Below the pieces are notes generated by a model. The model saw only the letters and a list, made by a program, of their open reading frames with translations. It was not told the origin of the DNA and searched no databases. From Staphylococcus phage SAML-229, in sequence record OP352124.1: 64,000 nucleotides of DNA; one strand, given 5' to 3'. Below, piece after piece: positions 58,103 to 61,358 of the stretch (the first letter of the stretch is position 1; each line of letters starts with the position of its first letter). The translations under genes and the position numbers were made by a program.

Positions 58103-59494
58103 TTAAACTGCGATATAACGAACGTTTTTAATACGAGCCCATTTTTTAGGAGCACGTAATGCTAATGCACCATACCATAATACTGCAAATGTAATAGAAG
58201 CATTAATTTGAGCTAATGGTAATTTCATCATTGGAAGTAATTCGAATAAGTGAACTACTTGTGGTGACATTTCACCAACAAATACGTCTGCTGTTTCAGG
58301 CAATGTTTCGTTCTTATCTACGAATACGATTGTTCCGTCTTCTTGTGCATCTTTAACTGGTACACGTTTGATTAGGAAGTACATACCTGTTTCTTTACCT
58401 TGACGGTAGATAGAAACGAATTGTGGTTGTTGTTGGTACATAGCGTTAACATTAATTGAAAGTTTAACACCATCGTCTACGTTAGATACTGTAGCTGTTA
58501 CTTCTTCAGAAGGAGCTGATTGAGCGTCATCTGAGTTAACTACTACTTTATATGATAATCCTGCACGGTCTTCTTCATTTTCAAAAGCACCTTTTTGCTT
58601 AGTTTCAACAGTAGCTGTAACTTTAGCAGGTTGTGGAGCATTTGGTAATGGTTGTAATGATTCATCTAAGATTAGTTCATTTTCCATTACTGTAGAACCA
58701 TGTAATTTAATGAATCCACGAGATGAGTAGAAACCATTTACGCTGTAACCAGTGTTAACGTTACCGCTGTTGTCTTGCATTAATTGCATTTGACGACCTA
58801 AGATTGAGTTAACGAAGTCTGCGTGTACACCGATAGGCATGTAAGCATCTGTAGCTGTACCGAAACCTTTACCGATACGTACCGCCGCCTCATTTAAGTG
58901 TTTCTCAGTTAATTGATTACCTTTAGCGTTAATTACGTTATTTTTGTCAATTAATTTAGCTAAACCATCAAACTCTAGACCTTCACCTTCAACTTCAGAA
59001 GTTAATGAAGCGTCACCGTAGAATGAAGCCCACTCAATTGTTTTTGCAACAACTGCGATAGCATCTTCTGTAAGGATTTGTGATGGGTCAGCAATGTTAT
59101 TTACTAAACCTGATGCAATTGACATATTTTTAGTATCAGAAACGTATTTCATTGATACAGTTTTTTGACGGATATTTGGGTCAGATACTGGTGCTACTCC
59201 GATTTCTTTAACGAAACGAGAGTGACCTACGTTACCATGACGTAAATATTGGTCGTATTTTACTACTGTAGATTGAGCAGGACGGCGTGAGATATCACGA
59301 TAGAAGATTAAGTCTTCATTAGTCCATGTTAACATTGTGATTTGGTCATCTAAAATTTCTCTACGTAAAGCTCCTGCGTCAATTTGTGTATCAGGAGTGA
59401 TTCCATAACCAGTTTGGAATGACTTTACTACGTCTTCTTGGAATTGGTCAGCGTACTTTTGTTGAACGTCTGACAGGTTCTTTTCGATAGTCAT
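58103..59494 (-). CDS. major capsid protein (HK97-fold type)
   Basis: 463 aa. Its position is after the protease and scaffold-like genes and it is followed by a strong terminator. Its N-terminal segment is homologous to the C-terminus of the prohead protease. Confidence 0.75.
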   Translation of the reverse strand: MTIEKNLSDVQQKYADQFQEDVVKSFQTGYGITPDTQIDAGALRREILDDQITMLTWTNEDLIFYRDISRRPAQSTVVKYDQYLRHGNVGHSRFVKEIGVAPVSDPNIRQKTVSMKYVSDTKNMSIASGLVNNIADPSQILTEDAIAVVAKTIEWASFYGDASLTSEVEGEGLEFDGLAKLIDKNNVINAKGNQLTEKHLNEAAVRIGKGFGTATDAYMPIGVHADFVNSILGRQMQLMQDNSGNVNTGYSVNGFYSSRGFIKLHGSTVMENELILDESLQPLPNAPQPAKVTATVETKQKGAFENEEDRAGLSYKVVVNSDDAQSAPSEEVTATVSNVDDGVKLSINVNAMYQQQPQFVSIYRQGKETGMYFLIKRVPVKDAQEDGTIVFVDKNETLPETADVFVGEMSPQVVHLFELLPMMKLPLAQINASITFAVLWYGALALRAPKKWARIKNVRYIAV

Positions 59495-59609
59495 ATAAAT
59501 TTATCACCTTTCATTTGTGTTCTTTTTATTTTATGTAGGGTACAGTAAAATGTACCCTATTTATATTCTTTAGTTACACCGTATAATATAACACAACTTT
59601 GTGCATTAA

Positions 59610-60566
59610 TTAAATTTGTGCAAAGTCTTTTACAGTTTTAATATCTTTCTCTGATGCATTAGTAGGGTCAGTGTTAATGTTCAAGTAAGATTGGTAAGCT
59701 GATTGTAAGTCATGTTTAGAAGCTCTAGGGTCTTTAGCTTGTGCTTTGTAAGAATCCATGAACTTAGTTCGTTCTTCTTGACTTAATCCTTTAAATGTGT
59801 TATCTTCTTGTACTTCTTCAGCTTCTTCTGATTTTGCTTCACCAGTTTCAGCTTGTTCTTCAGTGTCTACTGATTTAGAAACGTAACCTTCTACTTTTTC
59901 TTGCTCTCCGTTTGTAGATGTTACTGATTTTTCTACAGCTTCTTCATCAGTGTCTACTGATTTAGAAACATCTTCAGCTTGGATTTCAGAAATTTTTGCT
60001 GATAACTCATTAATAGATTTACTAACTTCACTTAAATCTTCTTTAGTAGCAAAGTTTTCTTTCTCTTTATTTAAGTTTTCAAAAGATGTTAAGATAGATT
60101 TAAATACTGTTGTGATATCTTCATCAGAAATTGATTTAGAAGTTTTTTCCTTCTTATCTTCTTTCTTATCTTTATCATCGTCAGTATCTTTATCTTCATC
60201 GTCAGAATCAGAATCTTCTTTTTTATCTTTTTTATTTTTACGTTTCTCGTTGTCTTTATTTTCTGTCTTAGTATCTTTTTGGTCTACAGGGTCTTTTGAT
60301 TCTTTAGCTGATTTTTCAACTTCCTCATCTTCATTGCCTTCTGCTACCTCTTCAGATTCAACTTTTTCACCTTGCTCTTGTGCTTCTTTAGCATCTTCCT
60401 CAGATACTTTTTCAGGTTCTTTAGCAGGTTCTTCAGTTGTTTCTGCTACTTGCTCTTCGGTAGATTCTACTGTATTCTTTTCATCATCTTCTACAGATTT
60501 CGAAACTGCCTCTTGAGCATTTAACTTATCATACTCTTCTAAAATATTTTGCATTTCTTTACTCAT
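59610..60566 (-). CDS. highly acidic scaffold-like protein
   Basis: 318 aa and extremely E/D/K-rich, between the protease and capsid genes. Confidence 0.5.
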   Translation of the reverse strand: MSKEMQNILEEYDKLNAQEAVSKSVEDDEKNTVESTEEQVAETTEEPAKEPEKVSEEDAKEAQEQGEKVESEEVAEGNEDEEVEKSAKESKDPVDQKDTKTENKDNEKRKNKKDKKEDSDSDDEDKDTDDDKDKKEDKKEKTSKSISDEDITTVFKSILTSFENLNKEKENFATKEDLSEVSKSINELSAKISEIQAEDVSKSVDTDEEAVEKSVTSTNGEQEKVEGYVSKSVDTEEQAETGEAKSEEAEEVQEDNTFKGLSQEERTKFMDSYKAQAKDPRASKHDLQSAYQSYLNINTDPTNASEKDIKTVKDFAQI

Positions 60567-60584
60567 AGAATGTATTCTCCTTAC

Positions 60585-61358
60585 CTATTCTAGTTTTTGT
60601 TTGTTTATATCCATTACTGCTAGTTCTGCATCTTTACGAGATAAACCTTTAGCTAGTTGTAACGTAAGGACTGATTCCTCATATCCCATACTATTAGATT
60701 TACTCAAATCTTCAACAACGCCATTCCATACATCATTAAACTCTTTTAAATCTTTAATCTTAGTGACGTAAGCTAAATTTGTAATGCTAGATGCTATTTC
60801 TTCTTTTCTTAAAGCTCCTGCATCAACTTGAGTGTCAGGTGATGTACCATGACCAGTTAAAAATGATTTCATAAAGCTTTCCCATGTTGCTTCAGGATTA
60901 GCAGGGTTTTTAACTAATGCAACTCCGGTTATCATAACTTCATCAATAACTCGATTGTCATTTATATTACGTTTTTTAACTGCACCTTCAATAGAAAAAC
61001 CTAAACGTCTTCCACTACCTGATTTTTCTAATTTCTCAGCTAAATCAAGCATCTTAACAACATTTTCGTCATTCTTCCATAGCTTTGCTTCAATAAATAA
61101 ACCTTTTTCTATATCCACATAGCAATTCTCTGTAGGTATACCTACAACTTTATCACTTTGATGCTCATAATTAATGTACCCTTGTGACTTAAAATACTCT
61201 ATATCTATTCCTTTAGGATTAACTATATCATTCTGTAAATCCATACTTGGAGTACTAGCCCATCCTGAAACGATAGAATACTCATTAGTATCAGAAGCTG
61301 TTGATACAGATTTCTTCAAATCCATAGGTACAAAAGCATTAAATTTTATTTCTTCCAA
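60585..61358 (-). CDS. prohead (maturation) protease
   Basis: 257 aa, positioned between the portal and capsid genes. It has an HK97-type protease-like core and a C-terminal segment similar to the capsid N-terminus. Confidence 0.65.
   Translation of the reverse strand: MEEIKFNAFVPMDLKKSVSTASDTNEYSIVSGWASTPSMDLQNDIVNPKGIDIEYFKSQGYINYEHQSDKVVGIPTENCYVDIEKGLFIEAKLWKNDENVVKMLDLAEKLEKSGSGRRLGFSIEGAVKKRNINDNRVIDEVMITGVALVKNPANPEATWESFMKSFLTGHGTSPDTQVDAGALRKEEIASSITNLAYVTKIKDLKEFNDVWNGVVEDLSKSNSMGYEESVLTLQLAKGLSRKDAELAVMDINKQKLE

Follow-up and report, generated by a model that had tools for sequence, protein, structure and literature searches.

The prohead (head maturation) protease encoded in the 64,000-nucleotide stretch of Staphylococcus phage SAML-229 analysed here (OP352124.1; hereafter the window) carries, directly behind its catalytic domain, a diverged copy of the segment with which the mature major capsid protein (MCP) of the same phage begins. 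Sequence and profile comparisons demonstrate or strongly indicate that the two segments are homologous, that they lie in register with the MCP maturation site, that they are conserved among related phages and that they co-evolve at the protein level. We propose, with a probability of roughly 0.55, that both are copies of one "cleavage site plus N-arm" cassette, which in the protease would serve release of the enzyme by autocleavage together with docking or recognition through the prime-side residues. Nucleotide identity of the head-gene region places the phage in Kayvirus (phage K/812 group, Herelleviridae), as bases 58000-61500 match Staphylococcus phage Sb-1 (HQ163896) at 100% identity and phages K and 812 at 99.8%; within this region the protease gene is 100% identical to Sb-1 orf076.

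A capsid protein segment in the protease tail

BLASTP aligned protease residues 160-210 with MCP residues 20-68 at 24 identities in 51 positions (E=5e-11). The ungapped 35-residue alignment proposed in an earlier note on this DNA, between protease residues 165-199 and MCP residues 25-59, was reproduced with its 19 identities, and the coordinates proved essentially right when checked codon by codon (Table 1). When the protease was compared by phmmer with all PDB sequences, the sole match was the MCP of this phage group. Alignment of 62 protease sequences against 17 MCP sequences in hhalign gave a probability of 98.4% (E=5e-15) and confined the homology to protease residues 159 to about 205 and MCP residues 19 to about 62. 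Moreover, the two proteins matched each other's families in PHROG, MCP residues 20-58 hitting phrog_1028 ("head maturation protease", E=3e-15) and protease residues 153-208 hitting phrog_752 ("major head protein", E=4e-6), while a hidden Markov model (HMM) of the segment scored 71 bits on the protease copy. Chance similarity is ruled out by the BLASTP, phmmer, hhalign and PHROG results. Outside the segment the folds are indeed unrelated, as had been claimed, the protease being S78/assemblin-like and the MCP of the HK97 fold, and neither profile nor sequence comparison revealed any similarity of protease residues 200-257 to the MCP or to the probable scaffold protein encoded between the two genes.

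A similarity of the two segments had also been reported at the DNA level. It is present (64 of 99 nucleotides), but bears no sign of recent duplication, since synonymous sites are randomised; at identical residues in this phage, 12 codons are shared between the protease and MCP copies, compared with 9.7 expected from codon usage (P=0.19).

It is already known that Herelleviridae process the MCP at its N-terminus, that prohead proteases process themselves and that C-terminal tails can serve in targeting. No published account of the protease/MCP similarity was found in the full-text literature, including searches with exact peptide strings, although subscription papers were partly beyond reach and a prior mention is possible; the exact strings of the segment occurred only in an analytical mass spectrometry (MS) paper. 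We found no description in which the tail figures as a paralogue of the cleavage site and N-arm of its substrate that co-evolves with them.

The segment begins at the maturation site of the capsid protein

The MCP is identical to chain P of PDB 5LII, adopts the HK97 fold and matches phrog_752 at E=1e-220. In PDB entries 9ROW, 9ROX and 9ROZ the MCP chain comprises 439 residues and begins at S25 (SFQTGYG...). Liquid chromatography-tandem MS of phage K virions yielded ten tryptic MCP peptides, the first of which is SFQTGYGITPDTQIDAGALR (SFQTGYG...) and none of which derives from residues 1-24; the same peptide is among three intense MCP peaks highlighted in the digest spectrum (PMC5258805). For Bacillus phage Bc431v3, 50% of the MCP was covered, beginning exactly at the homologous S34 after LQK33 (PMC3601020). 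The PDB chains beginning at S25 and the agreeing virion MS from two genera show, if indirectly, that the MCP is cut at VVK24↓S25 (arrow, cleaved or predicted bond). S25, the first residue of the mature protein, is the exact start of the shared segment, which is thus strongly indicated to be the mature MCP's new N-terminal arm.

The full N-terminus is accordingly not retained in the mature capsid protein, its retention having been among the refuting conditions of the earlier note. Its suggestion of a common cleavage motif in both proteins fared unequally: the capsid half is well supported by the PDB chains and by the phage K and Bc431v3 data, whereas the protease half is only plausible, K164 being invariant and lying in a predicted linker. 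Both sites share Lys at P1, Ser, Ala, Thr or Gly at P1', a hydrophobic residue at P3 and often an acidic one at P5. A release cut in the protease at K164↓S165, whose codons were confirmed against the nucleotide sequence, is regarded as plausible.

Conservation and co-variation among Herelleviridae

Our comparison covered 19 named Herelleviridae loci (Twortvirinae, Jasinkavirinae, Bastillevirinae, Brockvirinae, Spounavirinae, Harbinvirus and Hopescreekvirus) and 80 loci from IMG/VR. [quoted passage not shown] A third carrier, such as an internal or portal-associated protein, was found neither in the window nor within ±5 kb across the 99 non-HK97 loci. Searching with the tail alone (tblastn) retrieved 605 phage records, most of them with two matches, and the hosts among the matches listed were Bacillota. 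The gene order portal-protease-scaffold-MCP is kept in 18 of the 19 named relatives. In Lactobacillus phage LfeInf (locus L017, 2897-6302) the order is portal-MCP-protease-scaffold, with the MCP gene upstream of the protease gene, and the cassette is kept. The feature is thus no peculiarity of SAML-229, being family-wide and extending beyond Herelleviridae, and the profile comparison that had been called for showed the motif to be conserved across related phages.

HK97 (locus L020) gave no match to the segment HMM, and its gp4 tail bears no similarity to the N-arm. A weak resemblance between HK97 gp4 residues 20-45 (DSDGDIILP, in the N-terminal strand of the protease) and gp5 residues 90-118 (DSAGSLIQP, spanning the maturation site), with 14 of 31 identities and E=0.018, is probably due to chance. 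Scanning with gp4 for diverse S78 loci returned only near-identical HK97-like prophages, which were unusable as a broad control.

Cognate protease and MCP segments are 53% identical, compared with 44% for non-cognate ones (62 non-identical pairs, permutation p<1e-4), and in pairwise-swap (quartet) comparisons the cognate arrangement wins 1625 to 121. Restricting the set to 22 representatives of at most 70% mutual identity gave 52.6% versus 38.9%, with swaps decided 221 to 7. The co-variation is separately significant for P1'-P4', where it is strongest, for P5'-P20' and for P21'-P33'. Oddities of single lineages also recur in both copies, including SLEAGY/ALEAGH with GG..FR.ESL in SPO1-like phages, VAGTG in Lpa804-type loci (L015, L086, L091), HGGTDQ..RRQSLA in L066, ALK replacing ALR in L095, AANR in L076 and TGFG in Moonbeam. 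Codons at identical residues, on the other hand, are not shared beyond expectation (434 versus 448 expected over 56 lineages, ratio 0.97), and no single lineage is in excess. Drift after an old duplication would leave cognate and non-cognate segments equally alike, and conversion would leave shared codons; neither is seen, and the pattern therefore points to selection on both copies to fit something common. These results indicate that protein-level selection, rather than gene conversion, keeps the two copies alike.

Were the similarity due to conversion or recombination events recurring between these neighbouring genes, without any selection on the proteins, the arrangement of the segments would provide the opportunity, as they lie 1.4 kb apart on the same strand and their nucleotide similarity includes a 12-nucleotide identical run. 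However, codon sharing fails to exceed expectation both here and across the 56 lineages, and the similarity outlasts the changed gene order of LfeInf, so that we consider such a process very improbable. Recent duplication or gene conversion as the source of the similarity was rejected on the same codon tests.

Architecture of the protease

Pfam Peptidase_S78 (PF04586) matches protease residues 29-160 with 26.7 bits (cut-off 21), and the protease matches phrog_1028 at E=1e-163. H66 and S122 (GFSIEG), invariant in 62 homologues, are assumed by homology to be catalytic. In the AlphaFold2 model the predicted local distance difference test (pLDDT) score is about 90 across most of the core (residues 27-163), and the top 50 PDB matches of this model in Foldseek were all herpesvirus proteases (assemblins), the best at E~1e-4; the PDB holds no solved structure of this protease or of the scaffold. 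Residues 1-23 have pLDDT values below 50, as does the linker 164-182, which directly follows the last strand of the catalytic domain. The tail is modelled as a helix at 185-199 followed by helices at 204-220, 226-237 and 241-256, the latter three with pLDDT values of about 90.

Among the 62 proteases K164 is invariant and S165 nearly so, and G169, P174, Q177, A182, L183, R184, E186 and L195 are likewise invariant or nearly so. The C-terminal part (residues 200-257) is kept in the homologues examined, and apparently short homologues turned out to be N-terminally truncated gene calls, the tail being present in all. In Bacillus phage SPO1L5 (locus L019, 4492-5100) the protease open reading frame ends at 202 residues, just past the N-arm-like segment and without the C-terminal helical part, which could stem from a frameshift or a sequencing error, or could represent a naturally truncated but viable form. 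SPO1-like proteases (L016, L018, L019) present tandem candidate sites where the catalytic domain ends (residues ~150-170), WDAVVK↓SF and, 11 residues on, LDK↓SLEAG; of these, LDK↓SLEAG alone lines up with the MCP site LNK↓ALEAG.

A Φ-x-K↓S motif (Φ, hydrophobic) at the position of K16↓S17 is conserved in most of the 19 named relatives, suggesting that an N-terminal propeptide may be removed from the protease as well. The protease was found in purified virions of three relatives, namely fRuSau02, CKA15 and Bc431v3.

The probable scaffold and its short predicted cleavage motifs

The 318-residue protein encoded between protease and MCP matches phrog_1133, a family without assigned function, and its probable scaffold role is deduced from gene position, composition and motifs. 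It contains seven Φ-x-K-S motifs versus 2.6 expected (p=0.01), as repeats of the form V/T-x-K-S-V/I (VSKSV, VEKSA, VSKSI, VEKSV and similar). Counterparts in 18 other named Herelleviridae contain 5-17 such motifs, with p<0.01 in 17 of 18 and p≈0.10 in Listeria AG20; the 17 motifs of the LfeInf scaffold are the most seen. The last site, G-Y/F-V-S-K↓S-V, is conserved in position and precedes a site-free C-terminal domain.

The specificity of the protease is predicted to be Φ-x-K↓S, and the scaffold looks as if it were cut at such predicted sites into short fragments of 11-87 residues. None of these sites resembles the N-arm on the prime side. Because they lack long prime-side similarity, the enzyme probably needs only a short motif. 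Two peptides of a very acidic scaffold fragment, 24-85 (window 60309-60494, minus strand), both ending at the predicted site ...EEVEK↓S, were reported from phage K virions (PMC5258805), and part of the scaffold may stay in mature heads.

Relatives beyond Herelleviridae

With the protease profile as query, a full HMMER scan returned 4640 relatives. Among the best-ranked matches, 62 of 146 new sequences carry a recognisable N-arm-like cassette after the S78 domain, and many more of these distant relatives show weaker G-A-L-[RK]-x-E-S-L-E remnants. Many are 400-660 residues long with C-terminal parts rich in Φ-x-K-S, i.e., protease-scaffold fusions, in which the cassette lies between protease and scaffold or at the very end and varies in length. 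Genomic context was recovered for five distant relatives (L181, L182, L183, L184 and L186), and in three uncultivated phages, L182, L183 and L184, the cassette matches the cognate MCP. In L182 the tail KALVSGYNFAVTDQTGGGALRVESLEGSQKDLSY and the N-arm of its own MCP, KALQAGYNYAVTDQTGGGALRVESLESSLKVLTY, are identical at 26 of 34 positions (z=23), and the cassettes of L183 and L184 match their cognate MCPs with z=10.6 and z=14, respectively; the MCPs of L182 and L183 have Pfam SU10_MCP matches. As judged from these sequences, the cassette is widespread in this capsid lineage.

The PHROG families themselves point to further fusions. The first 150 positions of phrog_617 ("major head protein", 626 positions) match the S78 domain, so that fused protease-capsid proteins probably exist, and the protease profile phrog_1028 has a length of 591 positions. 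Evidently, phrog_617 and phrog_1028 bring together fused protease-capsid and protease-scaffold proteins under one functional label.

A model for the shared cassette and its alternatives

In the model that we favour, the cassette would span ~45 residues, with one copy each in the MCP and the protease. Its first part would be the short site, with an acidic residue at P5, a hydrophobic one at P3 and Lys at P1, behind which come Ser/Ala/Thr and another hydrophobic residue. Its second part would be the N-arm, in which an amphipathic helix comes after an extended SFxTGxGxxPDTQxDAGALR stretch. That the protease cuts the MCP after K24 is strongly indicated, while a cut at K164↓S165 would free the enzyme from its 93-residue tail, like the release site of herpesvirus assemblin, and perhaps the protease also cuts itself at K16↓S17. 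The 33 prime-side residues, in turn, would bind a partner common to MCP and protease, for which the scaffold C-terminal domain, neighbouring MCP N-arms or procapsid shell surfaces, and an exosite on the protease are candidates. In this way a few protease molecules could be loaded beside their substrate in the procapsid and then released.

Several results favour a docking role of the shared segment, if indirectly. Since a short site probably suffices for the cut, a binding element is the best explanation for the 33 prime-side residues. Docking with autocleavage as release is favoured because short sites seem to be enough, because co-variation extends to P33', because the segment contains an amphipathic helix, and because the N-arm region binds scaffold elsewhere: scaffold-binding regions lie near the MCP N-arm in P22 and T7 (PMC10275583). 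In Prohead 1 of phage D3, the first ~24 N-arm residues past the cleavage site are flexible (PMC12749128).

The strongest rival is extended substrate recognition only, by which the protease would read ~30 prime-side residues through an exosite or a required local structure, with the MCP and release sites as two high-priority substrates and no docking; in a variant of this idea, the tail copy may act on the zymogen as a tethered pseudo-substrate and prevent its activity before assembly. We hold this to be possible but on the unlikely side. Co-evolution with one enzyme accounts equally well for the co-variation, which peaks at P1'-P4', and the most conserved residues are P1 Lys and P1' Ser, yet the co-variation also reaches P21'-P33', far from the active-site cleft, and the scaffold motifs manage without prime-side similarity. 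The segment moreover includes an amphipathic helix that is a structural arm in the MCP, and AlphaFold2 does not dock the linker onto the catalytic domain. The fusions speak for recognition, as the cassette sits exactly at their protease/scaffold domain junction, where tethering is already covalent.

That last point is one of several that weigh against docking combined with autocleavage: with the enzyme covalently tethered to the scaffold, docking is not obviously needed, and a role in recognition or cleavage is favoured in the fusions. Some relatives have kept no more than K↓A-[ML]-x-A or a short G-A-L-K-x-E remnant. L181 keeps only the GAALKKEDVE part (z=2.7), little of the cassette is left in L186, and only K↓AM.A in the cultured Chryseobacterium phage MA9V-3; the long similarity is therefore dispensable in some lineages. 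AlphaFold2 gives no confident position for protease residues 164-182, and hence no docking in cis into the active site is predicted. Virions of Bc431v3 yielded trace-level peptides from both protease halves, one each, so that MS shows no specific retained fragment, and the scaffold cleavage sites on which the short-motif argument draws are predicted from sequence.

Alternatively, the tail copy could be an evolutionary relic of an ancestral protease-MCP (or protease-scaffold-MCP) fusion or of a partial duplication of the MCP 5' end, now supplying nothing but a cleavage site. The S78-like N-terminal 150 positions of phrog_617, the frequency of protease-scaffold fusions and the variable length of the similarity, decayed in some lineages, fit such an origin. 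A relic would nevertheless diverge independently, whereas cognate copies stay closer to each other across at least about 10 independent lineage-specific changes and without DNA homogenisation; ten positions of the tail copy are invariant or nearly so, and the tail is kept in every homologue inspected. We regard this explanation as distinctly unlikely.

Beyond the docking and release model, we speculate that the protease, or its fusion with the scaffold, enters the procapsid as a pseudo-capsid-subunit, its N-arm copy mimicking the contacts of MCP N-arms, and that the cut at K164 gives the 93-residue tail a new N-terminus of the kind found on the mature MCP (SFLTG..., compared with SFQTG... in the MCP), the tail then remaining in the head as a minor structural component wherever an MCP N-arm is lacking, e.g., around the portal vertex. 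This extension is unlikely. If true, substrate mimicry would be a general strategy, hitherto overlooked, by which phages whose capsid proteins are of the SU10 type bring in their maturation protease and set it in place.

Organisation of the head gene module

The head module lies on the minus strand in the order portal (61552-63243, with a Pfam Phage_portal match), protease, scaffold and MCP; the features discussed are compiled in Table 1.

Table 1. Genes, domains and observed or predicted processing sites of the SAML-229 protease-scaffold-MCP region (window coordinates; arrows mark cleaved or predicted bonds)
Feature	Position	Strand	Remarks
Prohead (head maturation) protease gene	60585..61358	-	257 residues, TTG start; open reading frame
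Candidate N-terminal autoprocessing site K16↓S17 (PMDLKK↓SVSTA)	61308..61313	-	Conserved Φ-x-K↓S, disordered N-terminus
S78 catalytic domain	60879..61274	-	Pfam residues 29-160; AlphaFold2 confident core 27-163
Predicted autocleavage bond K164↓S165 (WESFMK↓SFLTG)	60864..60869	-	In register with MCP K24↓S25
Protease copy of MCP N-arm, residues 165-199	60762..60866	-	Disordered 165-184, amphipathic helix 185-199
Protease C-terminal three-helix part, residues 200-257	60588..60761	-	Conserved LQLAKGLSR motif; without MCP similarity
Probable scaffolding protein, acidic, 318 residues	59610..60566	-	Seven Φ-x-K-S motifs (e.g. VSK↓SV, VEK↓SV)
MCP gene	58103..59494	-	463 residues
MCP propeptide, residues 1-24	59423..59494	-	Removed at K24↓S25 (PDB chain starts, virion MS)
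MCP N-arm segment, residues 25-59	59318..59422	-	Original of the protease tail copy

Two hairpins flank the MCP gene, one with a perfect 10-bp stem at 59535-59560 inside the 115-bp intergenic gap between scaffold and MCP, and a terminator-like one at 58048-58072 directly after the MCP gene. Their placement suggests, tentatively, that the MCP message, which is needed in abundance, is regulated separately or subject to RNA processing. The annotations of StAP1 (L001), HM01 (L003) and LY2 (L009) split the portal gene, which lies upstream of the protease gene, into two parts; those of LY2 are separated by open reading frames for transposases, and transposase genes are also found downstream of the head genes in Silviavirus loci. 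The head module thus appears to be interrupted by mobile elements.

Significance and comparison with known systems

Only for HK97, T4 and the herpesviruses is it well understood how a suitably small number of protease molecules enters the procapsid, is kept inactive until assembly has finished and is then released. The main therapeutic phages of Staphylococcus, Listeria and Enterococcus belong to the Herelleviridae, and structures of mature heads from this family are available in the PDB. Here the co-evolving N-arm copy would offer a specific, mutable handle on protease loading, activation and release, and the cassette predicts an autocleavage bond, a Φ-x-K↓S specificity, scaffold sites and a binding element. 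Uncultivated phages with protease-scaffold fusions have the cassette too, which may therefore represent a general design rule for a large capsid lineage.

One comparable system is the herpesvirus assemblin precursor UL26, with release (R) and maturation (M) sites of the consensus V/L/I-x-A↓S; its gene and the scaffold gene UL26.5 are nested. It has its catalytic fold in common with the protease described here, as the Foldseek matches show. In UL26, self-cleavage right after the catalytic domain separates the enzyme from a C-terminal assembly module, and the conserved Φ-x-K↓S in the linker predicted here would, if cleaved as predicted, do likewise. The sites are alike in having a hydrophobic P3, any residue at P2, a small or defined P1 and then Ser, and one type of site recurs in the protease precursor and a second protein of capsid assembly. 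However, herpesviruses share the scaffold itself through overlapping in-frame genes of identical sequence, whereas here the shared part comes from the MCP, is encoded in a separate gene, is about 55% identical and appears to be maintained by selection.

Lambda C/Nu3 and P2 gpO couple the protease to the scaffold through shared or nested reading frames. The protease is thus physically or genetically coupled to an assembly protein for co-assembly, as it is in the distant relatives described above, which are true protease-scaffold fusions. To our knowledge, no copy of an MCP N-arm occurs in lambda C/Nu3 or P2 gpO.

In T4, one short consensus site is found on the MCP, the scaffold, the gp21 protease and passenger proteins, and a capsid-targeting sequence (CTS) peptide directs proteins to the prohead and is removed by the protease. 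Autoprocessing of gp21 and the CTS of internal proteins have been reviewed (PMC9958956, PMC9026906). The two systems resemble each other in a short site common to several head proteins and in a peptide serving, here putatively, as a prohead targeting signal. The CTS is N-terminal, discarded and unrelated to gp23, and the T4 protease belongs to MEROPS S77; in contrast, the peptide shared here stays in the mature MCP as a structural arm.

The C-terminal tail of HK97 gp4 was reportedly found by Duda, Oh and Hendrix in 2013 to be required for packaging the protease into the procapsid, where the enzyme later destroys itself. Like gp4, the SAML-229 enzyme is an S78-family protease with a C-terminal extension past its catalytic domain (residues 165-257). 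The HK97 tail binds the delta (scaffold) domain of the MCP and is similar neither to the MCP N-arm nor to the tail described here, whereas the SAML-229 MCP has just a 24-residue propeptide and is accompanied by a separate scaffold gene. Unlike that of HK97, the tail of this protease is a paralogous, co-evolving copy of its substrate's cleavage site and N-arm.

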